Counted from the first letter of the stretch, positions 3,296-60,692 are shown. The stretch is DNA of 64,000 nucleotides from an uncultured Victivallis sp. (GCA_964540865.1 CAZION010000016.1:2914-66913), one strand, 5' to 3'. Program-made: numbers and translations. The notes: generated by a model not told the origin, from the sequence alone.

Positions 3296-6028
3296 ATGGC
3301 AAAGAAGAAATTTGTTTATTTTTTCGGCAAGGGAAAGTCCGAAGGAAAAGCTGACATGAAGGCGCTGCTCGGTGGAAAAGGTGCGAATCTCGCAGAAATG
3401 GCAAGGATGGGCCTTCCAGTACCAGCCGGCTTCACAATCACAACCGAATGCTGTGTCGACTACTTCAAACTCGGAATGAAATATCCCGTCGAACTCAAGG
3501 CGGAAGTCAATGCCGCCCTTGCAAGGACGGAAAAAGAGATGGGGATGAAGTTCGGCGACGCCAACAACCCGCTCCTCGTGTCATGCCGTTCCGGCGCACG
3601 CAATTCGATGCCGGGAATGATGGAGACCGTGCTCAACGTCGGCCTCTGCTCGAAAACAATCCCAGGCCTTGTGAAAAAGACCAATAACGAACGCTTTGTC
3701 TACGACGCATACCGCCGCCTTATCATGATGTACTCCGATGTAGTCATGGAAAAGTCCGAAGGAATCGAAGTCGCCGAAGGCAAAGGCATCCGCAAACAGC
3801 TTGACGGAATCCTCGACGAACTCAAACACAAGAAGGGCTACAAATCCGACACCGACCTTCCCGTCGAAGACCTTAAAATCATCTGTGAAGCGTTCAAGAA
3901 GCGCGTCAAGGACGTCCTCAAGAAACCTTTCCCTGATGACGCCATGGAACAGCTCTGGGGCGGAGTCGGCGCAGTTTTCAAAAGCTGGAACGGAAAGAAA
4001 GCCGTTTCATACCGCAGGATCGAAGGCATTCCTGACGAATGGGGTACCGCAGTAAACGTACAGTCGATGGTGTTCGGAAACATGGGTGACACCTCGGCAA
4101 CAGGCGTTGCATTCACAAGGAATCCGGCCACGGGCGACAATCACTTCTACGGTGAATGGCTCGTAAACGCACAGGGTGAAGACGTAGTCGCAGGAACAAG
4201 GACGCCAAACCCCTTGAACGACGACACAAAGAACGAGCAGAACAAACAGCTCGTATCACTCCAGAAGGCCATGCCGAAGACCTACAAGGAACTCTACGAT
4301 ATCCGCTGCAGACTTGAAAAGCATTACAAGGATATGCTCGATATCGAATTCACAATCCAGGAAAGCGTCCTCTACATGCTCCAGTGCCGCGTCGGAAAAC
4401 GCACGGGAACAGCCGCCCTCAATATGGCGATGGACATGCTCAAAGAGAAAATGATCACTGAGAAAGATGCTGTAACACGCGTTTCTCCGGATCAGCTCGA
4501 TGAACTCCTCCACCCGATCGTGGATCCAAAGGCCGAAGCGAAAGTCAAGCCCCTTGTCAAAGGACTCCCTGCCGGACCCGGCGGAGCCTGCGGCGAAATC
4601 GTCTTCACATCTGAAGACGCCGTTGAAAAGGCGAAAAAAGGCGTAAAGACAATCCTCGTCCGCGAAGAGACGAATCCTGAGGACGTGGAAGGCATGCGCG
4701 CCGCACAGGGCATCCTCACCGCCCGCGGCGGTATGACAAGTCATGCCGCACTCGTTTGCCGCGGCTGGGGAAAATGCTGTATCGTAGGCGCATCCGACAT
4801 CGACGTGAATGTCCATGCAAAAACAATGAAAATCGGCAACCAGTCATTCAAGGCCGGCGACATCATCACCATGAACGGAACAAAGGGATACGCATATTCC
4901 GGCGCTCTGGACATGATGGAAGCTACCGAAAATCCGAGATTCAAAAAGTTCATGGCTATTGTTGACAAATTCCGTGAAATGGGAGTCAGGACCAATGCCG
5001 ACACACCTGAAGATGCCGCGATTGCGTATAATTACGGCGCAGAAGGCATCGGACTGTTCCGTACCGAGCACATGTTCTACGGCGTTGGCAGCGAGAAACC
5101 ACTCTTCTTCCTCCGCAAGATGATTCTCAGCAACACCCTTGAAGAGCGCAAAAAAGCACTCAACGAACTTTATCCTTTTGTAAAGAAGGATATCAAGGCG
5201 ACACTTGCTGCGATGAAAGGGCTGCCGGTCACATTCCGTCTCCTCGATCCGCCACTCCACGAGTTCGTGCCACAAGGCGCGGAAAAACAGAACGAACTGG
5301 CTATAGCCCTCGGAATCACACGCGATGCAATCCAGAAGCGTGGCGACAGCCTTCACGAATCCAACCCCATGATGGGACACCGCGGTGTCCGTCTCGGTGT
5401 CAGCTATCCTGAAGTGAGCGAAATGCAGATCCGTGCAATCTTCGAATCCGCACTCGAGCTGAAGAAGGAAAAGGGAATCGCATGCAAACCTGAAATCATG
5501 GTTCCGGTGACATGCGACGTCAAGGAACTCAAACACCAGCGCGTGATTGTCGACAGGGTCGCCGCTGAAGTCTGCAAGAAATTCAATGTCAAGAAAATTG
5601 AATTCCTCTACGGGACAATGATCGAGATCCCGCGCGCCGCGATTCTCGCCGCAAAAATGGCGGAAGATGCGGACTTCTTCTCGTTCGGGACAAACGACCT
5701 GACACAGATGACATTCGGATTCAGCCGCGACGATATCGGCGGATTCATGAATGACTATCTTGACCAGAAGATACTTGATGTGGATCCCTTCCAGACAATT
5801 GACCAGGACGGCGTCGGCTTCCTGATCAAACACGCAGTTGTGGAAGGTCGCAAGACGAAATCGAAACTCAAGATCGGAATCTGCGGTGAACAGGGTGGAG
5901 AACCCAAGTCAGTCGCATTCTGCTACAAGCATGGACTGGACTACGTTTCATGCAGTCCGTTCCGCGTTCCGATTGCAAGACTGGCCGCCGCACAGGCAGC
6001 CATCAAGGCAAAAGCCGCAAAGAAATAA
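3296..6028 (+). CDS. ppdK: pyruvate, phosphate dikinase
   Basis: The 910 aa ORF has KALLGGKGANLAEMARMGLPVPAGFTITTE, the phosphohistidine loop TARGGMTSHAALVCRGWGKCCIVG, and the PEP-utilizing C-terminal segments GLFRTEHMF and SFGTNDLTQM. RBS GAAGGAAA lies upstream. Confidence 0.97.
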   Translation: MAKKKFVYFFGKGKSEGKADMKALLGGKGANLAEMARMGLPVPAGFTITTECCVDYFKLGMKYPVELKAEVNAALARTEKEMGMKFGDANNPLLVSCRSGARNSMPGMMETVLNVGLCSKTIPGLVKKTNNERFVYDAYRRLIMMYSDVVMEKSEGIEVAEGKGIRKQLDGILDELKHKKGYKSDTDLPVEDLKIICEAFKKRVKDVLKKPFPDDAMEQLWGGVGAVFKSWNGKKAVSYRRIEGIPDEWGTAVNVQSMVFGNMGDTSATGVAFTRNPATGDNHFYGEWLVNAQGEDVVAGTRTPNPLNDDTKNEQNKQLVSLQKAMPKTYKELYDIRCRLEKHYKDMLDIEFTIQESVLYMLQCRVGKRTGTAALNMAMDMLKEKMITEKDAVTRVSPDQLDELLHPIVDPKAEAKVKPLVKGLPAGPGGACGEIVFTSEDAVEKAKKGVKTILVREETNPEDVEGMRAAQGILTARGGMTSHAALVCRGWGKCCIVGASDIDVNVHAKTMKIGNQSFKAGDIITMNGTKGYAYSGALDMMEATENPRFKKFMAIVDKFREMGVRTNADTPEDAAIAYNYGAEGIGLFRTEHMFYGVGSEKPLFFLRKMILSNTLEERKKALNELYPFVKKDIKATLAAMKGLPVTFRLLDPPLHEFVPQGAEKQNELAIALGITRDAIQKRGDSLHESNPMMGHRGVRLGVSYPEVSEMQIRAIFESALELKKEKGIACKPEIMVPVTCDVKELKHQRVIVDRVAAEVCKKFNVKKIEFLYGTMIEIPRAAILAAKMAEDADFFSFGTNDLTQMTFGFSRDDIGGFMNDYLDQKILDVDPFQTIDQDGVGFLIKHAVVEGRKTKSKLKIGICGEQGGEPKSVAFCYKHGLDYVSCSPFRVPIARLAAAQAAIKAKAAKK

Positions 6029-14515: not shown

Positions 14516-18028
<3,513 letters not shown>

Positions 18029-18069
18029 TAATTTTTCTCTGCGAGAAAAATTAAACAACATATGGCAAA

Positions 18070-18098
18070 GCGGCGCAATAAAATGCGCCGCTTTTTTT
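18070..18098 (+). terminator. rho-independent terminator after PFOR
   Basis: GCGGCGCA (18070-18077), loop ATAAAA, TGCGCCGC (18084-18091), then T7. The design is nearly the same as the ppdK terminator. Confidence 0.85.
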
Positions 18099-18151
18099 AT
18101 ATGATGCCAGATTATCTACTGAAAACATCTCAGATGAAAAAAGGTGGAAAA

Positions 18152-18607
18152 ATGAAAAAAAGCGAGATCCGCAAAAAGATAAGGGAATTGTTCGAAACAC
18201 AGAAGCTGGGAATCCTTGCCACCCTGGGAAAGTCCTTTCCATATCAGAACATCGTGGCGTTTGCGGCCACTGACGACCTGAAGAATATCATTTTCACCAC
18301 CAAGCGCATGACTTCAAAATACAAGAACCTGAAAAATTCCCCGAAGGTGTCCATGTTCATCGACAACCGTTCAAACAGGGAAAATGATTTTCAAGATGCG
18401 CTCGGCCTGACTGCCATCGGCAATGCAAGGGAACTGCGTGGCCCGCAACGCGAGAAAACAATGTCCAGATTCATAAAACGCCACCCCAGCCTTGAAGAAT
18501 TCATATCCACGCCAAACAGCGCCATTTTCATTTTGAGGGTGCGTGTCTATTTCCTGGTCATGAATTTCCAGGAAGTCATAGAAATCCGGACAGACACATG
18601 GAAATAG
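18152..18607 (+). CDS. pyridoxamine 5'-phosphate oxidase family (FMN-binding split-barrel) protein
   Basis: I prefer ATG 18152 behind AAGGTGG, because the track start at 18062 lies in the terminator. The product MKKSEIRKKIRELFETQKLGILATLGKSFPYQNIVAFAATDDLKNIIFTT shows a PNPOx-like pattern. Confidence 0.6.
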   Translation: MKKSEIRKKIRELFETQKLGILATLGKSFPYQNIVAFAATDDLKNIIFTTKRMTSKYKNLKNSPKVSMFIDNRSNRENDFQDALGLTAIGNARELRGPQREKTMSRFIKRHPSLEEFISTPNSAIFILRVRVYFLVMNFQEVIEIRTDTWK

Positions 18608-18629
18608 GAGAGAGTATTCTTCTCCAGAA

Positions 18630-19820
18630 TCATAAAGCCTCACGATAAACTGCTTTTACACCATCGCGCCCAACGGGTGGACGGCTAGCCAGCGTCCCTG
18701 TGGCGTTGAAGCTGATTCGGGCCACATCTTCAACCATATCGTCTATTTCAGTCTCGGATATGTCGAATGCGGATAATCGGGTCGGGACTTCCAAGCGTCG
18801 GAGAAAGGCTTCAACCCTTCTGATTCCTTCCAGGGCTATTTCTTCAGGATTCCGTCCCTCCTGCTTGATGCCGAAAATGCGTTCGGCAAACTGAACGTAC
18901 CTATCAAGCCTGCGGCGGTATATGAATTTCATCCAGGCCGGCATGATGATGGATAGTGTCGCTCCATGTGTTATGTTGTATCGCGCCGAAAGGACATGCC
19001 CTAGCTGGTGCATGGGTGACCCAGGGGTGACACCAGCCTGAATCCAGCCGTTCCAAGCAAGTACGGAAGCCCACTGAATATTTGCGCGCAAGGCCAGGTC
19101 GGCAGGCTCGCGGACGATCTTCTCGACCAGATCCATGACGGAGGATAACGCCTTCTTGGAGACGGTCCTGCACAGGAGTATCATCTGCACCGTTAAAGTA
19201 GGATTCGATGACGTGGGAGATGGCGTCCACGGCACCGCATACGGTCTGATACTTGGGCAAACCTGTCGTGAGAGACGGATCAATTATGGACACGGCCGGA
19301 TAAAGCACCTCATGGAAGACGTAGGATTTCTCGACCGTCTCATCGTTCGTCACCACGGCACCGCAATTCATCTCGCTGCTAGTCGCGGGCAATGTTGGCA
19401 ACATGATCATGGGAAGCGCCTTCTCCGGAGGGATTGACACTTCAATATCATGGCGACTCTTGATCATCTTCCAGAGATCGTGCGGATACAGCGCGCCGGC
19501 GGCAATAATCTTAGTCGCATCCATCACGCTGCCTCCCCCGACGGCGATCAGCACATCTATGCGATGTTCCTTGCAGAGCTCGACCCCCGCACTTGGCTCA
19601 TCATGGGGTTTGCCGTGATGGCATAGTGAGTTGACACTGCCACTCCTGATTCCGCAAGCAATGTTTTTATACGGGGCAGTAAATCTCCAAAGAAGGTGTT
19701 GTCCCTATATGAAACAAGCAGAGCCCTTTTCCCGAGCTTTGCCGCTTCCGTACCAACCCTGGCGGCTTCACCAGGTCCAAAAATTACACGCACCGGATTG
19801 TAAAATTCAAAACGGTCCAC
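18630..19820 (-). pseudogene. iron-containing alcohol dehydrogenase, interrupted by two frameshifts
   Basis: Three track ORFs (19557..19820, 18904..19554, 18630..19283) together tile one Fe-ADH. The pieces are MDRFEFYNPVRVIFGPGE...ITANP, then VELCKEHRIDVLIAVGGGSVMDATK...AISHVIESYF, then SVMDLVEKIV...HQLGHVLSARYNITHGATLSII. Shift 1 is at the C5/G5 run 19584-19588 and shift 2 is near 19150-19156. The outer pieces share one frame and the middle piece is offset by one. Confidence 0.8.
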
Positions 19821-19936
19821 AGAGATTCTCCCTTTAAGTTTTGTGCTTACTTATTCCTGTTCATTTCATTATAAATCTAGCAAGAAAATCAAAAGTGTAT
19901 TCATTTCACCAGCTGTAAAAACAGGCACATTGAATG

Positions 19937-21985
19937 TCAAAGCTTTTCATCTTCTCTTTCAAAAGCCGGAATGGCCTTTCCGGGAAGGTTAACATCATAA
20001 GACTTCGCTTTGCTGGACAACGCCCCAACGCTGAATACCCAGTAAAGGCTTTCATTCCAGTTCATTTTGCCTCCATCGGTTGAAGGCTCAATTCGTATGT
20101 GTATCCGCTGCTTGCCTTTCGTGTAAGAAGGAGGGATATGAAATTCATCCTCGAGCCATCTGAATGTCGGATTCCGATCTGCATAAAACCAGTCACATTC
20201 CTGTATCCTTTTCCCGTCGACATATACGGAGGCATGCTGACCTGGCAATGCCTGGTCTGAACGCCGACGCAAGATAACGCCCTGATTCCCGGGATCTATC
20301 CTTACGATAAACTGACTTGACCCTACAAGAGTTCGCCCATTGTCTGCAATCATAACATCGTCAAACTCCCCTTCGAGGGCGGATGTCAGGTTCCACACAT
20401 TCGAACCATCGGCAGTGTATTCATGTTTTTTTTCTGATTCCGGACCGCCGACATCGAGGAAATCTGTCAGAATCATGGCGGATTCGGGCTCTCCATAATA
20501 GAAAATCAGTCCAGATCGCGGATCAACACCAGACTCGTCCCCGCCGCCGCCTTCAACAGTCATGCGCAAACTTTTTCGAAACGGGTAGAAATCACCCATC
20601 AATAGTCTGAGCATCGACCATTCCGAATTGCCTTTACCGTCGTAGCTGGAAGTCGGATTGGCCTGTGGCGGAAACTCAAATCCCCAGCCGTAACAGGCCC
20701 AGGATTCCGAGCCATCACTTTCGACCGCAGCCGTTCCGCAGCCATCGACATGTACGCGGACATCACCTTCGCACATCGACTTCTCGGCGGTGATCAAGCC
20801 GGCAACCACATGCCCGCTTCCGCGCAAGGTGGCAACGTGTGAGTCGCGGCCTGATTTTTTCGGGGTAATTGCCTGATAGGCAGATGTGCGGAAATGTCCT
20901 GTCCGAGCTTTTGGATATGCCAAGGCGCTCGCCGGCTTGAACACGACTGTACCCGAGATTTTAAGCGATGAGTCAGGGAGCCCGCGATTCTCCAATTCGA
21001 TTTTCGCAGAACGCCAGAATGGCATCGGCCAATAGCAGTACATCGTCCCATCATTGTCGGCACCCTGCATCAGGGTTTGGATGCGATGATATCCAAACTC
21101 ATTGCCGAAGAAGGCGCCTACGGGGCATTCCACTGCCGGATTACTTTCTCCGTCCCAGGTTATACGAATCCACAGCTGCCCAAGTGTATTCCGGTTGACA
21201 GGATCCAAGTGCAGGCGGATGGCGGCCAGGCTGCCTTCACCTTCATGGGAAAAAACAGACTGCACGGATTTTCCAGGGACTGTTATGGAAAATCCTTTCT
21301 CTTCGTTGCCTTGCCGGGGCTTGGGATCTTCTCCGCAGTGTTTCCAGAGATCGAGCAGCTTTGAGTAGTCCTCTTTACCGGTGATTGTGCGTACGCCTTC
21401 CGCGCTCGGATAACTGTGCCAGATAGCATGTCCCCACCCACCGCCAGTAGTGTGATTGCCCTCGAGTTTGATGGATGACGTGATTTTCAAGGATTTTTCG
21501 AACGGCATTGGGCAGAAGCTGCGCACAATCTGAAAATCGATTTTCTGCAACCGCTGATCTTTTGCGACCTGCGGCAGGAACTTATCTGCCAACGGGGTGA
21601 TGAACGGCGGTTTCAACCCGAATTCAGAATGTCTGATTTCAAAACCCGGTGTCGAACTGCCGTCAAAGTAGAAACGGTACAACGGATCCGAGTGTCCTAC
21701 CGCATGATGTACAACAAAATTCCAGAGGCAGCCCGGGCCTTGCGCCTCCATAATGACCCATTCTTTCGTGCGGCCATCCTCGTAGAGCCACCAATCCCAG
21801 TCGGCATTCTTTCCCAGCTTGTCAATGCTCCCCTCATAATGAACCTGCACATTTGGACGAAGCAACGGCAGCAATTCCACATGCATCATCTGGTCAATGC
21901 CCACCCGTTGAATGCCCTCATCGGCAAATGCGCCAACCATGCCTAATGCAATAATCACCACACCAATCATTCCCAGATAAACCAT
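19937..21985 (-). CDS. secreted DUF2961 / GH172-like protein with extra C-terminal beta-sandwich
   Basis: The 682 aa ORF has an N-terminal signal anchor. GPGCLWNFVVHH, YCYWPMPFWRSAKIELENRG, GHFRTSAY and GDVRVHVDG...SDGSESWACYGWGF match my memory of DUF2961 motifs (GPGxIxHIW, NCYFPMPFxxSARIELEN, GYFHAQW, GEGDEKIYVDG...GTGTEDYF). The ATG is 1 nt after the GRE stop. Confidence 0.6.
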   Translation of the reverse strand: MVYLGMIGVVIIALGMVGAFADEGIQRVGIDQMMHVELLPLLRPNVQVHYEGSIDKLGKNADWDWWLYEDGRTKEWVIMEAQGPGCLWNFVVHHAVGHSDPLYRFYFDGSSTPGFEIRHSEFGLKPPFITPLADKFLPQVAKDQRLQKIDFQIVRSFCPMPFEKSLKITSSIKLEGNHTTGGGWGHAIWHSYPSAEGVRTITGKEDYSKLLDLWKHCGEDPKPRQGNEEKGFSITVPGKSVQSVFSHEGEGSLAAIRLHLDPVNRNTLGQLWIRITWDGESNPAVECPVGAFFGNEFGYHRIQTLMQGADNDGTMYCYWPMPFWRSAKIELENRGLPDSSLKISGTVVFKPASALAYPKARTGHFRTSAYQAITPKKSGRDSHVATLRGSGHVVAGLITAEKSMCEGDVRVHVDGCGTAAVESDGSESWACYGWGFEFPPQANPTSSYDGKGNSEWSMLRLLMGDFYPFRKSLRMTVEGGGGDESGVDPRSGLIFYYGEPESAMILTDFLDVGGPESEKKHEYTADGSNVWNLTSALEGEFDDVMIADNGRTLVGSSQFIVRIDPGNQGVILRRRSDQALPGQHASVYVDGKRIQECDWFYADRNPTFRWLEDEFHIPPSYTKGKQRIHIRIEPSTDGGKMNWNESLYWVFSVGALSSKAKSYDVNLPGKAIPAFEREDEKL

Positions 21986-21986
21986 A

Positions 21987-24230
21987 TTAGACCTTCCTTT
22001 TTCCTGCTTTGTCTGCGCCCAGATTATGCACGCTTCTATTGATTATCATATCCTGCCATTCCTTTGAAAGGGTGGCGAAACGGGCGGACCATCCGGAAAT
22101 GCGCACCGCCAGATTCGGGTACTTCTCAGGACGCGCCTGTGCATCGCGAAGCAATGCCGTATCGACTACATCGATCTGCATGAATATTCCTCCCAGGCTG
22201 ACGAACGCCCTCATCATGGCGACAAGCGCAGCAAGCCCGTGTTCACCCTGAACACTTGACGGCAGCACCTTCAGATCCAATGCGGTGCCACAGGGAAGTC
22301 TCGAAAAATCCACCGAGCAGTGTGATTTGATGACTGCGGTGGGGCCTTTCAGATCCGTACCGGGAGTTACAGAGAAGTTGGGGGCGAGAATGTCGCCCTT
22401 GTGATTACCGGACGCGGTGGCGGCGCGGTTACCTAAATATCCTGTTCCCTCGCGCCCAAATGTGCTGATTCCTGCAGGCCTCATGATGCCAAGACGTTTC
22501 GGAACTTTTGCGACAAGCCCTGTGAAATCATTGAACACCTTCTGCATCATGGTGTCAGCCTCAGCAGAATCATTTCCGAAAAACTCAAACTGCTTTTGAA
22601 CGCGTTTCCTGAGATCTTCGCGTCCGCTCCAGTCGTCGCGCAATATGGCTATGAAATCCCGCAGGGGCATTTCCTCAGCCTCATACACCAGCTTCTTGAT
22701 CACCAGAAGGCTGTTGACTACGTCGGGCAGTCCGCCGGGATGCGGAGACAGCACAGTGTATTTGGGCCCGAGATCGTAGTAGGAGCGGGCCTTTTCAATG
22801 CAGCCATCGACAAGTAGCGATATCAGGGGTGTTGGATGAGTCGATCTGTTGCTTGAGTTCAGAAGGCTGGCGAGTTGGAAGGCCAGACGGTTCTTGAACT
22901 CGGCGTAGAAGGCCTCGAAGCTCGAATACTCCACCGTGTCCTTGTTCACCGGACCGAGACCGAGCGTCTCCTGCAGGATGGCAAGGGCGTCAAAAGGCTG
23001 GTAGCTGAAACATGTCTTTCCAGGTATCAACAGCTCCCAGCAGCCATCGTTGGTGAAATTCCGCGCCTCATCGAGGGGATAGCCGAATTTGACCAGCATG
23101 GGAACGATCCGGTCCTCATTGTAAACGGCGATGATGCCACCGCCAAGACGCTGCACTTCGGCAACACGGCAGAGCAGTTGCTCCTGGGATTTATTTGAAA
23201 GCCTGACTGCGATAGGGAAATCACTGATATGAAGTTCTTCGACAACGTCGAGCACAAGATATGTAACTTCGTTTGTTATGTCAATTCCTTCCTCGTCGAT
23301 TCCGGCAAGGATGATGTTCTGGTAGAACTGTGCATCGCCGCTGCCTTTGCCATCGGCGGTGATCCACTCGCAGCCCTTGATCCAGAAATGGGCAATCAAC
23401 TCCCGGGCCTCATCCATGGTGATGGCTCCTGCGTCCAAATCCCGGCGCAGATGCGGACCGAGCATTTTGTCGATCCGTCCGACCCCGCTCCAATTGCCGC
23501 AAAGCCTCTGGAAATCCCAGAGCATCCAGAGCGCCTGAACCGCTTCGCGGAAGTTCTGCGGCGGATTTTCAGGAACGTTCCGGACTGCGGAGAGTACGTG
23601 TTTATAATTTTTCCGCAGTTCTCCGCTGGACGCCGCCACGAGCCGTTCCAACTCGGTGATGTGCCGGCCATTCCAAGAATTTGCCGCATCAATGCAGACA
23701 AGCATCGAACGCAGAAGGTCCTCACCGTCGGCATCGAGATCATTTCGTCCGAGCCGTTCGACAATCTCGGCACGGATACCCTTGTATCCAATCTTGAGGG
23801 CCTTCTCGAAATCAATGGTTGTGTGGCTCACGGAACTGAGAAGGGATGGGGCCGGAGCAAGAGGGCGTTTGCTGATCCAGTCGCCATCGGGGACGCTGCG
23901 GGCACGGTATGACTGCGAAAGAAGCGGAACCGAGTGAAACGTCGCCTCTTTGAGAGTGGCTGCTCCTGCAAGTTTTTCCCAGGGAAGTATGCGCAGGGGA
24001 GCATTATCCGCGATAAGCCTGACCGCCTCGGCATACTGTTGATTCAATGACGGCATGGAAATGTAAAATTCAGGGGTGATGGCAAACTGCGCGTCAAGCA
24101 TGCCCCTCCCGAACTCGCCAGAAAGATAACTGACGGCAAGCTTGCGCGTAGATTCGGAAAGACGGCATGCCGATTTGACACCGGTGTAATTTCCAGGGAC
24201 TATTTTCTCATCTGCATTTTTGGTTTTCAT
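21987..24230 (-). CDS. glycyl radical enzyme, PFL2/dehydratase-like family, substrate unknown
   Basis: The 747 aa ORF has the C-terminal glycyl-radical fingerprint AVRISGWSARFATLSKEWQDMIINR (Gly codon 22092-22094). The Cys loop is TNDGCWELLIPG (Cys codon 23040-23042), which is the GCxE type. It also has the GRIDKML and GGIIAVYNEDRIV motifs. RBS AAGGAAG lies upstream. Confidence 0.85.
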   Translation of the reverse strand: MKTKNADEKIVPGNYTGVKSACRLSESTRKLAVSYLSGEFGRGMLDAQFAITPEFYISMPSLNQQYAEAVRLIADNAPLRILPWEKLAGAATLKEATFHSVPLLSQSYRARSVPDGDWISKRPLAPAPSLLSSVSHTTIDFEKALKIGYKGIRAEIVERLGRNDLDADGEDLLRSMLVCIDAANSWNGRHITELERLVAASSGELRKNYKHVLSAVRNVPENPPQNFREAVQALWMLWDFQRLCGNWSGVGRIDKMLGPHLRRDLDAGAITMDEARELIAHFWIKGCEWITADGKGSGDAQFYQNIILAGIDEEGIDITNEVTYLVLDVVEELHISDFPIAVRLSNKSQEQLLCRVAEVQRLGGGIIAVYNEDRIVPMLVKFGYPLDEARNFTNDGCWELLIPGKTCFSYQPFDALAILQETLGLGPVNKDTVEYSSFEAFYAEFKNRLAFQLASLLNSSNRSTHPTPLISLLVDGCIEKARSYYDLGPKYTVLSPHPGGLPDVVNSLLVIKKLVYEAEEMPLRDFIAILRDDWSGREDLRKRVQKQFEFFGNDSAEADTMMQKVFNDFTGLVAKVPKRLGIMRPAGISTFGREGTGYLGNRAATASGNHKGDILAPNFSVTPGTDLKGPTAVIKSHCSVDFSRLPCGTALDLKVLPSSVQGEHGLAALVAMMRAFVSLGGIFMQIDVVDTALLRDAQARPEKYPNLAVRISGWSARFATLSKEWQDMIINRSVHNLGADKAGKRKV

Positions 24231-24356
24231 GGTTTCTTCCTTTGTTGGAACGTCGTCATACTTATTCTTATCCTCATTACCGGTATGATGGCGGTATTCC
24301 TTTTAATGATACATGACTAATAATAGTATCATCTTATTGAATTCACCATGAACAGC

Positions 24357-24385
24357 ACTACTATATCCATATATACAACTACTAT
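24357..24385. promoter_or_regulatory. candidate AraC operator / divergent promoter region
   Basis: In the AT-rich 200 bp between the GRE and araC-type genes, the direct repeat ACTACTAT occurs at 24357-24364 and 24378-24385 (21 bp period). The inverted repeat ATGATAC/GTATCAT occurs at 24306-24312 and 24326-24332. Confidence 0.3.
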
Positions 24386-24430
24386 TATCTTTTCTTGCGG
24401 CATTTAGGAGATTACACAAGAAAAGATTAA

Positions 24431-25294
24431 TTGAAGAAAAAGGACATGAACAAACTCCTGGAGATAATTCCACCGGATGCGGTTTCTGCGGATTTCATCG
24501 ACGCCTCTCATGGGGAAGGCACATGGAACGGACGGATACACATCAAGACCGTCCCTTACTGCATCGCCGTGATTCCGGTTGTCGGCAGATATGAAGTCGT
24601 TACTCCGGATGCATCTGTAGATATTTATTCGGGAGAGGCGTTGCTTACGCCTTCGAATCTCCCGTTAAAATTCATACATAACGGTGATCCGAAAAGAAAA
24701 TTCATGATGAAGATGAAGTGGGTTCACTTCCATTTCAGCGTTTTCGGCGCGATTGATTTCACCTCCATGCTCGATATGCCTTTGAAACTTGAGATTCCTG
24801 CAGCCACAAAATTTGGGGAAGTGATTGATGAACTGCTAAGCCTGCAGGAGTCTGAGTCCGGTATTGCAGGCCTAGCCAGGCGCGGTGAACTCAGCTTCAA
24901 ACTTCTCAATCTTGTCTGCTCTGTGTCGAAGCCCAAGGAGGATGCCCTTGTTTTTCTCGAAAGCTCGCAGCGGTTGAAATCGGTTCTCGTCTATATGAAG
25001 AGGAATCTGCAATTGAAAACCGATGTTGCAAAACTTGCGAAACTCGCAAACCTTTCACCGTCGCGCTTCCATACGGTGTTCAGGGATATCACAGGATCCG
25101 GCCCTATGGAGTACCATAAGAAATTGCGCTTGAACGCCGCATTCAGACTTGTCATGACTACCGATGACAAATTAAAAGCCGTTGCGGAGAAAACCGGATT
25201 CTGCAATGAATTCCATCTCAGCCGCGACTTCAAAAGGAATTACGGCAAAAGCCCTATGGAATACAGGAAGAAGGATTTGAGGAATCTGGTTTGA
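24431..25294 (+). CDS. AraC family transcriptional regulator
   Basis: The 287 aa ORF has a cupin-like N-terminal half and a C-terminal AraC HTH (LAKLANLSPSRFHTVFRDITGSGPMEYHKKLRLNAAFRLV...FCNEFHLSRDFKRNYGKSPMEYR). The start is TTG 24431 or ATG 24446. Confidence 0.85.
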   Translation: MKKKDMNKLLEIIPPDAVSADFIDASHGEGTWNGRIHIKTVPYCIAVIPVVGRYEVVTPDASVDIYSGEALLTPSNLPLKFIHNGDPKRKFMMKMKWVHFHFSVFGAIDFTSMLDMPLKLEIPAATKFGEVIDELLSLQESESGIAGLARRGELSFKLLNLVCSVSKPKEDALVFLESSQRLKSVLVYMKRNLQLKTDVAKLAKLANLSPSRFHTVFRDITGSGPMEYHKKLRLNAAFRLVMTTDDKLKAVAEKTGFCNEFHLSRDFKRNYGKSPMEYRKKDLRNLV

Positions 25295-25334
25295 TAGTGT
25301 CCGCCCCGAATGCTTCCAACTCAAATGTCCCCCC

Positions 25335-25886
25335 CTATTTTTGAACATCTGAATTCCCCGGCTGTTTCAGGAAAACGAGCAGCACCCCGGCCACAATCAG
25401 GAAACTCCAATAGGAAATAAATATGGAAGGGTGCATGAATGATATGCCGTCAACGGTGAAGTCAGACAGCGGATACAGGAATGGCGTCGGAAAGTACGCT
25501 TTTGAATGAGTGGGGATATCGCAAAGCACATGCCAGAGCCAGGCGCAGGCGGAAATCCCAAGCCAGCGGTTAACGAGCAACAGGAGCAGGATCATCATCG
25601 TCACAATGATTAAACTGTGAGACATGTTATAGGCGGTGAATACCCAGTCGGGGATACTCTCCAGAGGCGGCTTACCCCTGCCCCCGTTGAATATGTGCTT
25701 GAAGACTACATAACTGAAAGACATCAGATCGGGAAGCACTCCGAAAAGCACCGCGGACGGAAGCGTCCAATCAAAACCATGGGGCTTTGCATCCTCATTA
25801 TTCCTCCCCAGCAGCAATCCAGCGTATCCTGAACGGCTGAAGAACAGCGCCCCAGCAACCCCGTGCGCAAATGTATCCATATCCAT
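25335..25886 (-). CDS. membrane-bound metal-dependent hydrolase-like protein (DUF457/YdjM-like)
   Basis: The 183 aa polytopic membrane protein starts MDMDTFAHGVAGALFF and has conserved His residues in TM segments (SHSLIIVTM, WHVLCDIPTH). Confidence 0.45.
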   Translation of the reverse strand: MDMDTFAHGVAGALFFSRSGYAGLLLGRNNEDAKPHGFDWTLPSAVLFGVLPDLMSFSYVVFKHIFNGGRGKPPLESIPDWVFTAYNMSHSLIIVTMMILLLLLVNRWLGISACAWLWHVLCDIPTHSKAYFPTPFLYPLSDFTVDGISFMHPSIFISYWSFLIVAGVLLVFLKQPGNSDVQK

Positions 25887-26022
25887 TCCCTGTTTTTTAA
25901 TGAGAAAAAAAAGAACCCCGGTCTACGTTGGCGCCGCCCAAAGATTTTACGTCTCATGCTGACAATACTTCAACTCATTGACATAAACAATTTGTGTTTG
26001 GTGTTTCCGCAGAAGTAACTCT

Positions 26023-26214
26023 GGTCTATCTGACCCGGGATTCGCAGGGCAGATAGACCCGTGCTACTCTTAACTCAGCGCCATTCTAGTCAACCGTTAA
26101 GCTGGATTTTCATCGTATTACCCCTACCAGCTTAACTGGGAGAAAAAGATTGTTGGGCTAAGATCCACGGTGTTAGCAACCCAATCTTTGCTTCCCGTGG
26201 GATAAACCCACGGG
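26023..26214. other. array of strong stem-loops in a 470 bp intergenic region (candidate structured RNA or leader)
   Basis: H1 is GGTCTATCTG (26023-32) with CAGATAGACC (26050-59). H2 is GTTAAGCTGG (26096-26105) with CCAGCTTAAC (26127-36). H3 is an imperfect helix, 26138-57 with 26180-96, enclosing GCTAA/TTAGC. H4 is CCCGTGGG (26194-26201) with CCCACGGG (26207-14). CCACGG at 26165-70 could pair alternatively with H4. Confidence 0.4.
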
Positions 26215-26354
26215 GGACTGCTTATTGCTCTTCCCCCATTCGCCTTGATTTAAATAAAGATATCCCAGATTAACGGTTACGACACTCGAATCTTATCTTC
26301 AGGGAACATCTGCTTCATTCTGGCAAAAAGCGACAATAATTATATATTCCATCT

Positions 26355-28211
26355 ATGTCTTCAATTCAATACAATTATGATGTTGTCGTAATCGGTGGCG
26401 GCCATGCCGGCTGTGAAGCCGCACTTGCGGCTGCGCGGCTCGGAGCACGGACACTTCTCCTCACAATAAACATGGACCATATCGCCCAGATGAGCTGTAA
26501 TCCCGCAGTCGGAGGAATCGCGAAAGGACAGGTTGTCCGCGAAATTGACGCCCTCGGCGGTGGAATGGGGAAGATAACTGATGCGGCATCCATCCAATTC
26601 AGGATGCTGAACTGCGGAAAAGGACCCGCCGTATGGTCACCGCGGTCCCAATGCGACAAGGTCTGCTATCAGAAGGCCATGAAATTCGAACTGGAAAAAG
26701 CGGAAAACCTCATAATCCACCAGGCCGAAGCAAGCGGCTTTCTGACAGATGGCGACAAAATCTGCGGGGTTACAACAACATTCAATGAAACATTCAAATG
26801 CAAGAGCGCAGTTGTAGCTTCGGGAACTTTCCTTTCCGGAAAACTCCACTATGGCCTTCTTAATTATCCCGGAGGCCGCGCCGGAGATCCTCCGTCATGC
26901 AGCCTCTCCGAATCCCTGAGAGTACAACTCGGCATAAGGCTCGGCCGTTTAAAAACCGGCACACCGCCGCGGGTTCTTGCGAAAACAGTCAACTTTGAAA
27001 AAATGATTGTACAGGAAAGCGATTCCCCGGACGAATATTTCAGTTATTTTCCGGAAGACCAGGCATTCCCCCGGGCTCTCAAAAGGGCTATGCCATGCTA
27101 CCTTGTGAAAAGCACTTTTGAGACTTCGGAAATAATCAAAAACAACCTCCACAAATCCCCTCTTTACCAGGGAGTGATATCAGGTATAGGAACAAGATAC
27201 TGCCCTTCATTCGAGGACAAGGTCATACGCTTCCCGCATCACGAAACCCACCTGCTCTACCTCGAACCGGAAGGGGAGTTCACCGAGGAATACTATATCA
27301 ACGGAATATCAACAAGCCTCCCTCCGGAAGTGCAGGTGCAGATGCTCCATTCCATCCCCGGCCTCGAAAACGCCGTAATCTCAAGATATGCCTACGCCAT
27401 TGAATATGATTACGTCCATCCCGACCAGATGTCACGCAGCCTCGCAGTGAAAAAATGGCCCAACCTATTTCTGGCAGGACAGATCAACGGGACAAGCGGG
27501 TACGAGGAGGCGGCTGGACAGGGGCTTGTCGCAGGCATGAATTCTGCGAGGTTCGCAGGAGGTTTGGAATCGGTGGAGCTCGGCAGGGACAGTAGCTACA
27601 TCGGCGTAATGATTGATGATCTTGTGACAAAGGAGATTGTCGAGCCGTACCGCCTCTTCACAAGCCGCGCCGAATACAGGCTCATGCTAAGGCAGGACAA
27701 TGCCGATATCCGTCTCTGCCCCCTCGCCCACAGCATAGGGCTGCTACCGTCTGCGAAGTTCGCAAAATTCACTGCGTATTTCAACCGGCTCAAGGAAATT
27801 GAACAGAAGTACCGCACAGAAAAACATGAGAATCAGACACTCCACGGCCTTTTGAAAGCGTTTGGAGGAGTTGTCCCGCCAAAAATAGATTTCCCGCTGC
27901 CCTACCTCGATCTGTCATCCCAAGAGGACAGAAGAATCCTCAGGCAACTCATAATTTCATCCCATTACGAGGGTTATATTGAAAGAGAACTGAGGTCGGT
28001 GAAAAATCTCCAGAAGCTCGAACTCTGGAAGATTCCGAAGGATTTCAACTATGACGCCATAACCGGTCTGCGAAACGAGTCAAGGATGAAGCTCACGAAA
28101 ATCCTTCCCGGCACTCTCTCACAGGCTTCAAGGATTGACGGAGTTACTCCTGCAGAAATAAGCCTCCTGCAGGTGCACCTGAAAAGGATCTTTCAGCCAG
28201 CCCACAAATGA
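26355..28211 (+). CDS. mnmG: tRNA uridine 5-carboxymethylaminomethyl modification enzyme MnmG (GidA)
   Basis: The 618 aa ORF has YDVVVIGGGHAGCEAALAAARLGARTLLLT, MSCNPAVGGIAKGQVVREIDALGG, GTRYCPSFEDKV and FLAGQINGTSGYEEAAGQG. Confidence 0.96.
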   Translation: MSSIQYNYDVVVIGGGHAGCEAALAAARLGARTLLLTINMDHIAQMSCNPAVGGIAKGQVVREIDALGGGMGKITDAASIQFRMLNCGKGPAVWSPRSQCDKVCYQKAMKFELEKAENLIIHQAEASGFLTDGDKICGVTTTFNETFKCKSAVVASGTFLSGKLHYGLLNYPGGRAGDPPSCSLSESLRVQLGIRLGRLKTGTPPRVLAKTVNFEKMIVQESDSPDEYFSYFPEDQAFPRALKRAMPCYLVKSTFETSEIIKNNLHKSPLYQGVISGIGTRYCPSFEDKVIRFPHHETHLLYLEPEGEFTEEYYINGISTSLPPEVQVQMLHSIPGLENAVISRYAYAIEYDYVHPDQMSRSLAVKKWPNLFLAGQINGTSGYEEAAGQGLVAGMNSARFAGGLESVELGRDSSYIGVMIDDLVTKEIVEPYRLFTSRAEYRLMLRQDNADIRLCPLAHSIGLLPSAKFAKFTAYFNRLKEIEQKYRTEKHENQTLHGLLKAFGGVVPPKIDFPLPYLDLSSQEDRRILRQLIISSHYEGYIERELRSVKNLQKLELWKIPKDFNYDAITGLRNESRMKLTKILPGTLSQASRIDGVTPAEISLLQVHLKRIFQPAHK

Positions 28212-57104: not shown

Positions 57105-60100
57105 ATGTTAATGAAATTATTGATTGCTATGATGTTTATTCTGGGAATGGCATGTCACGCATTCGACGGAAATATTCGAATTGACATTGACGCAATGAGA
57201 AATGATATACCGCTGGAGAAAGCCAATGCCAGCCCCGGCTTGAAATGGTTTTATACGCATGCATGGCCCAACTACTTGAACTTGGAAAAACACAATAACC
57301 TAGTTTTTGAGGGAACGGCACCCCTTTCCGAGGAATGGCAGAAATTCGAGTTCGAGTTCACTCCTGGGAAAAGCGAAGAACTAAAGCTTTATGCTCGTGG
57401 CGTATATACCCTGGATGACTCGAAAACTGCTTGGGTCGCTTACACTGGTTTCAAAGAGAGCGGAACGGAACTCAGCAATGGAGATTTTTCTCAAATTAAA
57501 AACGGCGTTCCCGAAGGCTGGCTGATCAACCCGGGTCTGTTCGATACTTCCGCCAAACCACCTTTGATCTACGGCGCTTTTGGTGCTTTCGGCGTGAAAA
57601 CACTCAAGGTTACGGCCGACAAGCGAGTGAGAATATCCTTCATGGCCCGTAAAGGAAAAGAAACAGACTGGAATGAGCTTCCGGTGAGATTCGATAACAA
57701 AGCAATTGAAACTTCTTTGGTTAAACTGGTTAAATTCAAGCTTGATAAAATCGAATTCTTAAAAACTAATTCAATTTCAAATCTTCATAAGCCCGATGCA
57801 AACTATGAATCTGACTTAAAACGTTTGGGGTTAATTTCGTGCAAAATTGGAGATATTAATGATAAAATAATTTCCTGCGTCCCACTAAAAGCTGGCGCAG
57901 TAATGTTGCCCTTCAAGCAGGATTTAAGCATATACGACACTGTAAAAGTTACCATAACACCGTTATCCGGGAGTTTCAAAGCTGCTGATTTTGGGGTCGC
58001 AATCAATCAGGACAAGCAGTATTATCCGGGGAAATTGGAAAATATTTCTGAAATAATTATAAACAAACCCGTCGAATTGCTGTTCGATATTTCTCAGACG
58101 GCAAGAAACAATCCCCAGTATTTTCGTTTTTATTTCAGCAGGACTGGAGATAAAATCGATGAGGAAGAAAAAGATCCATCATGCTTTTGGTTCTTCAGTG
58201 ATATATTGACATTTCCTCCACTGTTCGACAAGGGATTGACGGCAAAGAATATCACGGAGAAGTCCCCGGACAAGAACTTCAAGTTTGGCCGGCCGACACC
58301 GGAACCGCGTTTCGTTGGGAATCCTACACCTTCCGGAAAGGGAAACGTAACTAAAAAGTCCGTTCCGGTGGAACTGCTCGAGGATTACGGCGTGGACCGG
58401 ACGGCCTCGGTTCGATTCGGTTTTCCGCTTCCTGAAGGTGGCCTGTGTGATATAAAAAAGATGCAGGTACTTAATCCTGAGGGAAAGCCGGTCCCTTTCC
58501 AGACTGCAGGCACCGCCTTCTGGCCTGACAAATCGCTGAAATGGGTGCTTTTGCAATTTGATGCACCATTAAAGGCAAATGAAAAAGCAATTTACCAAGT
58601 GGTGTTCGGTGAAAACGTCGACGAAGCTGAAAAGGGTGACACGTTAATCCTGGCGGATAATGGTGATATCATAAGCGTCGATACCGGAAAACTCCAGGCG
58701 ACGATTGACAGAAATAAATTCAACCTGGTCAAGGATGTGAAGATCAAAAGTGGCAGAAAGTGGATAGATGCGGGTGGCTTCGCGGTGAATGGGCTGGAAT
58801 TGCGCGACGAAAATGGACGACTGTTCAGCAGTGCTATGATCGACCCCGAAAGTGTTGAGATCGAAGAGCAGGGGCCGGAACGTATCGTTCTCAGAGTTCG
58901 TGGCAAATATGGCTCCACAGACAAGGATGCCACGAACATGAGCTATGAAGTAAGGCTCTCTTTCGCCCGTGGCTCTGAGAAAGTCGGGATAGCAGTTTCA
59001 ACGACCAACACTAATTTGGAAAATGAGTTTACTGATATCGACAGTCTTTCCTGCGCATTCGTTCCTGCCTCTCCCATTCAGGGGGGTAAGGTTTTGCTGG
59101 ATGCCCAGAACTTGCAGACCATGCGGCAAGGCCCCTGCCAAACCGAGGAAATTGTCCTGAATCCGAATTCTCAGACTCGGCTGTTCCAGGAGGATGAACA
59201 GATCCTATCAGGCGCAAAAGGACATGAGAACTCCAGATTGACTGGAGCTGTCGAAGTGGACACAGCGACAGGGCCGGTTCGTGCTGTTTTGAAAGACTGC
59301 TGGCAACGCTGGCCCAAAGCCTTCTCGGTCAACAAGAAGGAACTGGTTTTCGAGCTGTTGCCAAAACAGCCGTCACGCAACTTTTACCGGAATCTTCCCT
59401 ATTATCTGTTGTTTCCCTTCTGTGAAGGCAAGTATAGGCTGAAATGGGGAGTCAGCTTTACTGAGAATATCGACTTGGATTTTGGAAGTATGAAGTCTTT
59501 GGCCGAGGCGGATGCGGAAACCAATCTGCCTGTAGTAGCAGCGATTCAGAGAGATTGGTACTATCAGACTAAAGTACTGCCTGGGGCGACTCCCGGAGAT
59601 GACCGGCAATTTGATGTCTGGGACGATGCCGTCGCCCGCTGGTTTAATGAGCATATGGAATTTAAAAAGACCCATCATCCCTACGGCTTTTTGAATTACG
59701 GTGACTGGTTTGGCGAACGTGGGGGAACAAACTGGGGCAACAATGAATACGACATCGCCCACGGCCTGTTCATGGATTATATCCGCACGGGCAACCGCGA
59801 CCATTACCGTTGGGCCGTTAGGGCGGCTCAACACGATGCTGATGTCGATACCGTTCATGCCTATCCCGATCCGTACTATGTAGGCGGGGATATCACGCAC
59901 TCGTTCTGTCACAACGCCGGCTGTTTGCTGGGTCGGAAGTTGACGCTGACCCTGTCAAATCCCTACAGCGGAAACGCGCTAGCGTCGAACGGGCATACCT
60001 GGCTGAGAGGCATGGTTGACTCCTGGTTGCTCGCGGGGAATGCCCGGACGCAGGAGTCCGCGCTGACGCTGGGAGAGCATATCGTCTGGAATCCGCCTCT

Positions 60101-60692
60101 TGACACCAAGAACTTCGGTGTCTACCTGCGTGCTCAGGGCTATCCGCTCATCGCTCTCGCCGCCTTGTATGACGTCAACCACGATCCCATGTACAAGGAA
60201 GCCGCCGAAAAAATTGTCGAACTCGTGATAGGTCAGCAGAGCTTTGACAAAGGTGGAGCTTGGTACCACAAGGTATGGGGGGTGGGAGATATGCCCGTTC
60301 AATGCTGTTTGCAGGTTGGTATTCTCACGCAGGGAATGAGCGACTATTATAAGATGACGGGCAATCCAGAGGCAAAGAAATCCATTATTGCCTCCTCCGC
60401 TTGGCTGGCCGAATCTTGGCACGAAAAGGCCAATGGCTGGCCAATGGTTGCCACCTGGGATGGTAAGGCGCAAGGACGCGAACCGGGTTGTAGTGATCAG
60501 AATATGCTCGAAGCACCACCACTGGCGTATGCCGCTTTGCTGGGCGGAAACAGCAAATGGTATGACATAGCAAAAATGACTATGGAACAAGTTCCGACTA
60601 AGGAGATGCCTAGTTATGGTAAGCCCTTTTCTCAGATGATCATGTTTGCTCCGGAGTTGATTAGTGGTATCTATGAATGGCAGCAGAAGTAA
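57105..60692 (+). CDS. large secreted protein, putative glycan-active enzyme (N-terminal CBM-like domain, C-terminal alpha/alpha-barrel-like domain), family unknown
   Basis: The 1195 aa ORF has a signal peptide (MLMKLLIAMMFILGMACHA). It has SNGDFSQIKNGVPEGWLI (CBM4/9-like). The C-terminus has NYGDWFGERGGTNWGNNEYDIAHGLFMDYIRTGNRDHYRWAVRAAQHDADVD, HSFCHNAGC and QCCLQVG. RBS AAGGAG lies upstream. Confidence 0.75.
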   Translation: MLMKLLIAMMFILGMACHAFDGNIRIDIDAMRNDIPLEKANASPGLKWFYTHAWPNYLNLEKHNNLVFEGTAPLSEEWQKFEFEFTPGKSEELKLYARGVYTLDDSKTAWVAYTGFKESGTELSNGDFSQIKNGVPEGWLINPGLFDTSAKPPLIYGAFGAFGVKTLKVTADKRVRISFMARKGKETDWNELPVRFDNKAIETSLVKLVKFKLDKIEFLKTNSISNLHKPDANYESDLKRLGLISCKIGDINDKIISCVPLKAGAVMLPFKQDLSIYDTVKVTITPLSGSFKAADFGVAINQDKQYYPGKLENISEIIINKPVELLFDISQTARNNPQYFRFYFSRTGDKIDEEEKDPSCFWFFSDILTFPPLFDKGLTAKNITEKSPDKNFKFGRPTPEPRFVGNPTPSGKGNVTKKSVPVELLEDYGVDRTASVRFGFPLPEGGLCDIKKMQVLNPEGKPVPFQTAGTAFWPDKSLKWVLLQFDAPLKANEKAIYQVVFGENVDEAEKGDTLILADNGDIISVDTGKLQATIDRNKFNLVKDVKIKSGRKWIDAGGFAVNGLELRDENGRLFSSAMIDPESVEIEEQGPERIVLRVRGKYGSTDKDATNMSYEVRLSFARGSEKVGIAVSTTNTNLENEFTDIDSLSCAFVPASPIQGGKVLLDAQNLQTMRQGPCQTEEIVLNPNSQTRLFQEDEQILSGAKGHENSRLTGAVEVDTATGPVRAVLKDCWQRWPKAFSVNKKELVFELLPKQPSRNFYRNLPYYLLFPFCEGKYRLKWGVSFTENIDLDFGSMKSLAEADAETNLPVVAAIQRDWYYQTKVLPGATPGDDRQFDVWDDAVARWFNEHMEFKKTHHPYGFLNYGDWFGERGGTNWGNNEYDIAHGLFMDYIRTGNRDHYRWAVRAAQHDADVDTVHAYPDPYYVGGDITHSFCHNAGCLLGRKLTLTLSNPYSGNALASNGHTWLRGMVDSWLLAGNARTQESALTLGEHIVWNPPLDTKNFGVYLRAQGYPLIALAALYDVNHDPMYKEAAEKIVELVIGQQSFDKGGAWYHKVWGVGDMPVQCCLQVGILTQGMSDYYKMTGNPEAKKSIIASSAWLAESWHEKANGWPMVATWDGKAQGREPGCSDQNMLEAPPLAYAALLGGNSKWYDIAKMTMEQVPTKEMPSYGKPFSQMIMFAPELISGIYEWQQK

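Follow-up and report, generated by a model that had tools for sequence, protein, structure and literature searches.

The 64-kb stretch of DNA from an uncultured Victivallis sp. that was analysed here (GCA_964540865.1, CAZION010000016.1:2914-66913; referred to as the window) encodes an enzyme of the oxygen-sensitive glycyl radical type (GRE) whose sequence places it in a large, uncharacterised clade of CxE-type GREs with an unusual invariant tryptophan in the Cys loop. The clade is found in anaerobic bacteria of the Planctomycetota-Verrucomicrobiota-Chlamydiota (PVC) group, in Armatimonadota, in Bacteroidota and in other uncultured bacteria, and its best-supported conserved unit consists of an AraC regulator, an operator, the GRE and sometimes a GRE activase. 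From the observed family assignments, conserved residues, gene-context statistics, pseudogenes and purifying selection, we favour on balance the interpretation that the window enzyme is an AraC-controlled eliminase or isomerase of the CxE type that is activated in trans, with the neighbouring GH172 and alcohol dehydrogenase genes as accessory genes that decay easily.

The open reading frames (ORFs) were called again and the motifs were verified by translation; all coordinates are those of the whole window. The features of the locus are as follows.

24431..25294, plus strand: AraC-family regulator, divergent from the GRE (Pfam HTH_18 1.6e-19, HTH_AraC 1.3e-16)
24346..24385, no strand assigned: tandem 19-nt direct repeats between the GRE and AraC genes, putative AraC operator (repeat search)
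21987..24230, minus strand: GRE of the 'GCWE' clade, 747 aa (Pfam PFL-like and Gly_radical)
23034..23051, minus strand: Cys loop NDGCWE, residues 394-399, with C397 and E399 (translation)
22077..22103, minus strand: glycyl radical loop RISGWSARF, residues 710-718, with G713 (translation)
19937..21985, minus strand: GH172/DUF2961-family protein, 682 aa (Pfam PF11175)
18630..19820, minus strand: YqhD-like Fe-alcohol dehydrogenase (Fe-ADH) pseudogene, with two frameshifts, near 19587 and 19141
19557..19820, 18904..19554 and 18630..19283, minus strand: overlapping Fe-ADH ORF fragments that match Fe-ADH and ADH_Fe_C

All of the ORFs reported in a first-pass annotation of this DNA were recovered at exactly the coordinates given there, and the divergent AraC regulator that it described is upheld by the two Pfam matches. 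The close spacing of the genes was also confirmed: translation placed a single nucleotide between the TAA stop of the GRE and the ATG of the GH172 gene, and 116 nt separate the GH172 stop from the start of the ADH.

The assignment of the 747 aa protein to the GREs, made earlier without database searches, held under profile search, with Pfam matches to PFL-like (PF02901, 7e-92) and Gly_radical (PF01228, 3e-20). The glycyl radical fingerprint was intact in translation, and the Cys loop was of the CxE type as first read, with a tryptophan position that is invariant in the clade. The CxE motif is common to all GRE 1,2-eliminases and isomerases (PMC13450708). Because C397-W398-E399 is invariant and the motif is shared by these 1,2-eliminases and isomerases, the window GRE can be assigned as a genuine member of the CxE (eliminase/isomerase) type.

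A protein search with the window GRE returned at least 120 relatives, with 57-100% identity among the matches listed; those of the listed matches with a named source came from metagenome-assembled genomes (MAGs) of Lentisphaerota, Victivallales, Planctomycetota and Marinimicrobia. Going by the closest relatives, the genome is Victivallales-like. The patterns NDGCWE[IVL][LI] and QRLCGNWS retrieved 275 relatives from a collection with one genome per species. The best 80 of these 275 were MAGs without exception and span Lentisphaerota, Verrucomicrobiota, Kiritimatiellia, Planctomycetota, Armatimonadota, Prolixibacteraceae, Firestonebacteria, Hydrogenedentota and others. More than 150 columns were invariant in a 33-member alignment, all of which are kept by the window GRE; these include H136, Q241-R-L-C-G245, W247-S248 and N394-D-G-C-W-E399, as well as V709, R710 and G713-W-S-A-R-F718. 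The GRE is under purifying selection. Relative to L171, the closest of the related loci (designated here by L numbers), nonsynonymous divergence (dN) was 0.099 and synonymous divergence (dS) was 1.07 (dN/dS ~0.09); the values for L006, L007 and L173 were similar, with dN/dS of 0.09-0.12 across relatives. As the window and L171 share a junction that lacks an activase, this constraint is maintained without an adjacent activase gene. No description of the clade was found in the literature searched, including work on GREs in PVC phyla and GRE papers from 2024 onward, and a 2026 review notes that whole GRE clades are still without any experimental function (PMC13450708).

The analysis further bore out the view that the enzyme lies outside every characterised GRE clade, since it fell below the cutoff of every NCBIfam model and is 19-25% identical to the solved GREs. 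The scores were 316.5 bits for the PFL2-3 subfamily (TIGR01774; cutoff 678.2), 283 bits for HypD (cutoff 1100), 262 bits for HpsG (cutoff 1000), 253 bits for the PflD-like PRK09983 (cutoff 1109) and 232 bits for CutC (cutoff 1050); taken together, the HypD, CutC, HpsG/HpfG, PflD-like, indoleacetate decarboxylase, 4-HPA decarboxylase and PflB models gave 70-283 bits against cutoffs of 994-1150. The AlphaFold2 (AF2) model of the GRE (pLDDT 82, pTM 0.86) matched solved GREs in Foldseek with E-values of 1e-41 to 1e-28, those listed being 19-25% identical to it, and it superposed on every solved eliminase and isomerase (21-25% identity). The 1,2-propanediol and glycerol dehydratases came first by a small margin (24-25% identity), and the best sequence match in the PDB was a propanediol dehydratase, which scored 259 bits where the GRE against itself scored 1710.

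Residue equivalences were derived from a pairwise HMMER alignment at ~25% identity, in which the numbering of glycerol dehydratase was counted from the alignment itself. C397, invariant in the clade, aligned with Cys433 of glycerol dehydratase, and His164 and Tyr339 of that enzyme were conserved as H136 and Y303. At three other positions the residues differed, with Ser282 corresponding to Gly249, Asp447 to no residue or Gln, and Tyr640 to Phe591. His164, Ser282, Asp447 and Tyr640 are the diol-binding residues of glycerol dehydratase. The clade carries its own active-site signature (GCWE, QRLCGNWS and Phe591/Arg593), unlike that of any characterised member, and the substrate pocket of the window GRE is predicted to be unlike every characterised one.

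These comparisons bear directly on whether the enzyme is a divergent dehydratase of small diols or polyols (1,2-propanediol, glycerol or ethylene glycol), serving as a general fermentative module behind deoxy-sugar and glycerol metabolism with aldehyde reduction by the Fe-ADH on the model of dhaB1-dhaB2-dhaT, an explanation that we consider unlikely. The B12-independent glycerol dehydratase of C. butyricum (DhaB1, 1R8W/1R9D) and the 1,2-propanediol dehydratase of R. inulinivorans (5I2A/5I2G) are the closest matches in both sequence and structure, and they share with the window GRE the ten-stranded barrel fold, an RVxG-type Gly loop, the GCxE Cys loop and the equivalents of His164 and Tyr339. 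An Fe-ADH partner is also present in some clade loci, and an activase of the type with two ferredoxin clusters occurs in relatives. The context of several loci is in agreement with such a role: a YqhD-like Fe-ADH stands right after the GRE in L073 and is also present in the window; a rhamnosidase-like gene lies upstream in L073, and a fucose-isomerase-like gene and a kinase in L012; and the highly variable glycosidase neighbours would suit a common downstream metabolite. In an Armatimonadota MAG (L053:6747-14627), a true GlpK (763 bits, cutoff 498), a G3P-dehydrogenase-like gene, a GCWE-clade GRE, an activase and a sulfatase follow one another on the same strand. The identity of 24-25% is, however, no higher than that to CutC, HypD and HpsG, and the TIGR01774 score of 316 bits is below the cutoff of 678. 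Unlike these two dehydratases, the window GRE has Trp, not Val, between Cys and Glu, changed equivalents of Ser282, Asp447 and Tyr640, ~50-90 fewer residues and a divergent N-terminal 130 residues, and its locus has an AraC regulator, with no microcompartment shell or aldehyde dehydrogenase genes nearby. A diol dehydratase is plausible as a specific version of the favoured CxE-type interpretation, though the subfamily scores fall short.

The gene context of the clade was examined at 86 loci carrying its members. Only two partners recurred, namely a divergent AraC gene with a conserved tandem operator and a downstream activase. An AraC homologue was detected within 1.5 kb upstream of the GRE in 20 of the 68 non-redundant loci with upstream sequence, which is an undercount because the query was the AraC protein of the window itself; in the closest relatives of the window this protein is 80-86% identical. 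The two 19-nt direct repeats at 24346-24385 (family D1 in the repeat search) have a spacing of 21 nt. The repeat block, TAYAGTAG..TATATATG..TAYAGTAG..TTCATGG, is kept in L006, L007, L009 and L018, as is a CTATTATTAG block downstream of it, and the flanking intergenic DNA has diverged. It is plausible that the repeats and the CTATTATTAG block constitute an AraC operator and promoter, to which the AraC protein would bind. Promoter and terminator scans of 18000-26400 gave no more sites than shuffled sequence, and Rfam at its gathering threshold gave no match in the window, with no known riboswitch family detected.

The first-pass annotation had found no radical-SAM activase in the 64 kb, and this was confirmed by two approaches: no window ORF of at least 100 aa contained CxxxCxxC, and a tblastn search of the window with a family activase gave no match at E<1e-8. 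The suggestion that the missing activase is special to this locus did not survive the comparison with relatives. A GRE activase lies directly downstream of the GRE in 17 of the 65 loci with downstream sequence (~26%), among them the close relatives L006 and L173, leaving ~74% without an adjacent one. Where at least 5 kb was available on both sides, an activase was present anywhere in the locus in 12 of 40 cases. As an adjacent activase accompanies only about a quarter of these GREs, an 'orphan' enzyme is normal for the clade and does not set the window apart. The clade activase itself is a true TIGR02494 member (329 bits, cutoff 174).

Two further observations concern the linkage of these genes. 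A stand-alone activase (TIGR02494, 346 bits) is encoded at L139:10760-11701 and L140:15047-15988, ~8 kb from a GH172 gene and with no GRE on the contig, an indication that in these organisms the two genes frequently lie apart. In addition, L007:2429-8596 contains two AraC/GRE modules in tandem; paralogues of the clade therefore exist within one genome, and these could share one activase.

Other neighbours of the GREs were highly variable. Among 64 putative same-strand operon partners, no Pfam family occurred in more than 2 cases; the partners include GH32, GH36, GH78-like, GH97, GH116, GH123, GH127 and PL8 proteins, sulfatases and reductases. Since the flanking glycosidases and sulfatases are many and unrelated, the GRE substrate is most likely a common hydroxylated metabolite that arises downstream of glycan breakdown.

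The Fe-ADH was confirmed to be broken by comparison with the intact orthologue of L073, which directly follows the GRE there. A tblastn search with this orthologue matched the window in three segments (frames -1/-3/-1, 64-82% identity), and the DNA comparison revealed two deletions, of 4 nt (near 19587) and of 2 nt (near 19141), between which residues 80-228 are out of frame; no other defects were present. An in-frame stop as the cause of the break was ruled out by tblastn, which shows a frameshift. The best NCBIfam match of the ADH was PRK15138. The gene looks like a recent pseudogene, and an assembly error would also account for the break.

Glycoside hydrolase family GH172 was represented by the 682 aa protein, whose earlier assignment to DUF2961 was borne out (PF11175, 2e-38; 132.7 bits against a gathering cutoff of 27). 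Its AF2 model (pLDDT 88) has a double jelly-roll core with extra N- and C-terminal beta domains, and the top 7 Foldseek matches were all GH172 structures, 8ic8, 4kq7, 8ah3 and 7v1v among them, at 18-21% identity. In an alignment with ExoMA1, E406 (CEGD) and E427 (SDGSES), which are invariant in 118 homologues, fall on the catalytic glutamate pair of GH172; in alphaFFase1 the acid/base is E270 and the nucleophile is E291. Fructofuranose is excluded in ExoMA1 by Asn253 and admitted in alphaFFase1 by Gly299; the window protein has Gly435 at this position, which hints at a predicted tolerance of ketofuranose. Compared with alphaFFase1 (7V1V, a difructose dianhydride I synthase/hydrolase) and ExoMA1 (8IC8, an exo-alpha-D-arabinofuranosidase), the window protein has the same double jelly-roll core and both catalytic glutamates, and like alphaFFase1 it has Trp-Gly at the W298-G299 position. 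It differs from both in being 18-21% identical over ~300-380 of its 682 residues, in its additional beta domains and in having Ser at the equivalents of W267 and D292. The signal anchor described in the first-pass annotation corresponds to a hydrophobic N-terminal segment of 21 residues (MVYLGMIGVVIIALGMVGAFA, ending before DEG), which is similar in many homologues and has no basic n-region. Signal-peptide-like N-termini are present in many PVC homologues and absent from Paenibacillus and Cohnella members.

In the window, the GRE is followed by the intact GH172 gene and then by the ADH pseudogene. The closest relative (L171/L172; 8 contigs in JGI samples, from lake and groundwater), with a GRE 84% and an AraC protein 80% identical to those of the window, has the same 1-nt GRE/GH172 junction. 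Its GRE is intact, and three defects make a pseudogene of its GH172 gene (L171:6266-7832, L172:3870-5436): codon 68 is a nonsense codon, the reading frame shifts near residue 101, and 468 nt between two PMPF motifs, corresponding to residues 169-317, are deleted. In place of the ADH, the next gene encodes a ferredoxin of 56 aa. Since the L171 GH172 gene is a pseudogene and the GRE beside it is conserved, the GRE does not depend on GH172. A second, distant subclade was found in L062 and L086, with a GRE 54% and an AraC protein 37% identical to those of the window. Here the GRE is followed by a single activase::GH172 ORF of 922-958 aa (L062:12146-15022, the same as L086:3600-6368), in which a complete activase with CxxxCxxC and two ferredoxin-type clusters is fused in frame to a GH172 part 72% identical to that of the window. 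The two parts meet where the signal peptide of GH172 would be cleaved. As L062 and L086 share 99.98% DNA identity, they represent one population and not two independent observations.

A third arrangement was seen at L170:1-75, where the 59 nt upstream of a truncated GH172 gene (~85% identical to that of the window) match the GRE promoter and 5' untranslated region (UTR; ATGATACTATTATTAGGCATGTATTATTAAA) and run straight into the ribosome-binding site and start of that gene. A clean loss of the whole GRE ORF in the L170 lineage would produce such a junction. In the close relatives L006, L173, L174/L175, L176, L007, L018 and L003, an activase or unrelated genes follow the GRE. No GRE lay within 10 kb in any of 80 GH172-centred metagenome loci, and the same was true of L087 and L088, the two loci examined among those of the closest GH172 homologues. 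The pairing that the first-pass annotation had put forward is thus found again, with the same 1-nt junction in L171/L172 and as a fusion in the distant subclade, and it is not generally conserved, being confined to 2-3 lineages of ~85 GRE loci and to none of the 80 GH172-centred ones. The adjacency is sporadic yet more than chance, because it recurs in two divergent GRE subclades, one of them with the fusion.

Such recurrence is what would be expected if the genes formed a dedicated operon, in which a secreted GH172 enzyme would free an unusual furanose, ketohexose or anhydro-sugar outside the cytoplasm. Inside the cell the GRE would dehydrate or ring-open this sugar by radical chemistry, and the resulting carbonyl would be reduced by the Fe-ADH. 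We judge this explanation to be possible and somewhat unlikely. The 1-nt spacing, with the GH172 ribosome-binding site (AGGAAGG) inside the 3' end of the GRE, is in its favour, as are the repetition of the junction in L171/L172, the activase::GH172 ORF behind a 54%-identical GRE and the L170 GH172 start joined straight to GRE promoter/5'UTR sequence. A rough chance estimate, which assumes ~2 GH172 copies per ~5000 genes, gives ~0.05 adjacencies over 65 loci against the 2 independent lineages observed. The window GH172 also retains both catalytic glutamates and the Gly at the fructofuranose-admitting position.

The two groups of loci share accessory genes as well, which adds to the case for a dedicated operon. 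A Mala_s_1-like beta-propeller (PF22701) comes after the GRE-activase pair in L070:13004-13942 and after the GRE-ADH pair in L073:7914-8744, and in six loci (L097:6795-9587, L139, L140, L143, L146 and L161) it lies next to members of the GH172 subfamily or is fused to them, on either side. The GH78-like proteins encoded upstream of the L073 GRE and next to GH172 in L151 share 48% identity, and homologous IclR regulators occur in L070 and L097. GH172 relatives often adjoin a D-psicose 3-epimerase (NF051856, 403 bits, cutoff 300), for instance in L132, L150, L154 and L160, and the same clusters contain a FucI-like isomerase, a XylB-like kinase, a GFO/MocA oxidoreductase and GH2; an MFS transporter is also a frequent neighbour. 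These neighbours hint at ketohexose chemistry. In a stringent cross-comparison, the isomerase and kinase of L012 were not linked to those at the GH172 loci.

A precedent for the sugar chemistry envisaged in the first-pass annotation is provided by YbiW and PflD, GRE isomerases that ring-open 1,5-anhydroglucitol-6-P and 1,5-anhydromannitol-6-P (PMC13450708). They are CxE enzymes acting on sugar-derived cyclic ethers, and the window GRE shares their motif and matches their fold (E ~1e-35). It differs from them in being 21-23% identical, in its PRK09983 score (253 bits against a cutoff of 1109) and in a cassette without PTS, kinase or FSA aldolase. Several findings argue against a dedicated operon. 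The 80 GH172-centred loci are without a GRE within 10 kb, this GH172 subfamily stands beside a GRE only in the window, L171/L172 and L062/L086, and the close relatives L006, L173, L174 and L176 have no GH172. The window cassette encodes no transporter or kinase, and L171 keeps an intact GRE at dN/dS 0.09 next to a GH172 pseudogene. Localisation is also inconsistent, as the GH172 protein has a signal-peptide-like N-terminus in the window and, in L062, shares one polypeptide with a cytoplasmic Fe-S activase. No paper pairing a GRE with GH172 was found in the literature search, in line with the earlier statement that no described pathway with this pairing was known to its author. Quite unlikely, in our estimation, is the broader proposal that the GRE, the activase, the GH172 subfamily and the Mala_s_1-like propeller make up a new anaerobic radical pathway on furanosidic, ketohexose or anhydro sugars; in PVC bacteria and their relatives it would cover, for example, difructose-anhydride-like or psicose/fructofuranoside compounds, with the GRE catalysing a new sugar-level C-O cleavage.

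The divergence of the GH172 gene was compared with that of its neighbours. Residues 1-100 gave a dN of 0.31 and a dS of 0.50 between the window and L171, which shows that the N-terminal fragment in L171 is under relaxed constraint. Over the GH172 gene, dS was ~0.40 between the window and L171 or L170, ~2.5-fold below the dS of ~1.0 for GRE and AraC in the same lineages; this lower value may reflect recent recombination, exchange or transfer of the GH172 segment. A possible origin of the window arrangement from a GRE-activase-GH172 operon like that of L062, by deletion of the activase, was also weighed: the GREs are 54% and the GH172 proteins 72% identical, and neither the window nor the DNA downstream of the L174-L176 GREs contained an activase remnant.

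The pseudogenes also raise the question of whether the whole locus is a decaying remnant, with a GRE that is inert without an activase. The lack of an activase in the 64 kb, the two frameshifts in the ADH and the state of the GH172 gene in relatives, pseudogenised in L171 and truncated with the GRE deleted in L170, are all compatible with such a fate. The GRE, however, retains all of the 150-plus family-invariant residues and shows dN/dS of 0.09-0.12, and this strong constraint argues against a purely decaying locus. Furthermore, the window GH172 is intact, with Glu406 and Glu427 invariant across 118 homologues, and ~70% of family loci have no activase within 5-10 kb, so that its absence is no evidence of loss. 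We therefore regard a remnant as improbable. The accessory genes are a different matter and are readily lost, as the ADH is dead in the window and GH172 is dead in the nearest relative.

Under the favoured interpretation of a CxE-type eliminase or isomerase activated in trans, we infer the chemistry, by analogy with CxE-type GREs, as well as the substrate class and the mode of activation. An activase encoded elsewhere in the genome would place the radical on Gly713, from where it would move to Cys397, which would take a hydrogen from a hydroxyl-bearing carbon. Glu399 would deprotonate that hydroxyl, and His136, the counterpart of glycerol dehydratase His164, may protonate the leaving group. 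The C-O bond on the neighbouring carbon, or alternatively a C-N or C-S bond, would then break and yield a carbonyl product. The GH172 protein and the aldehyde-reductase-type Fe-ADH would be accessory passengers of one Victivallales sub-lineage. Four points weigh against this interpretation. No activase was seen for this genome within the visible 64 kb, and the ADH pseudogene together with the decay of the cassette in relatives would fit a locus that is being lost. The adjacency in GRE subclades that are 54% identical and the activase::GH172 fusion argue for a link more specific than that of a passenger. Finally, the residue equivalences rest on pairwise alignments of hidden Markov models at ~25% identity.

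The GCWE clade is large, highly conserved and widespread in uncultured anaerobic glycan degraders, with its own regulator and operator, and it represents a function-discovery target for GRE specialists. Identifying its substrate would extend the anaerobic turnover of carbohydrates or polyols by a radical reaction, in communities of freshwater, groundwater and digesters. What defines this window is not the pairing with GH172, which is an add-on seen occasionally; the activase::GH172 fusion is unusual enough to merit further attention and, with the shared accessory genes, provides concrete leads to candidate substrates.

A few minor observations were made on the window and its surroundings. No second GRE and no microcompartment genes were found among the window ORFs examined. 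The GREs of the window and L171 carry a short C-terminal extension (…NLGADKAGKRKV; 21987-22030), not present in L006, within which the AGGAAGG ribosome-binding site for GH172 lies. Ordinary anaerobe chromosomal genes surround the cassette (window 3296-6028, 14516-18028 and 57105-60692), pyruvate phosphate dikinase and LpxC among them. An ORF of 1170 aa was read by eye as a putative pyruvate:ferredoxin oxidoreductase, and a 1195 aa PcRGLX-like (rhamnogalacturonan-lyase-like) protein is also encoded in the window.

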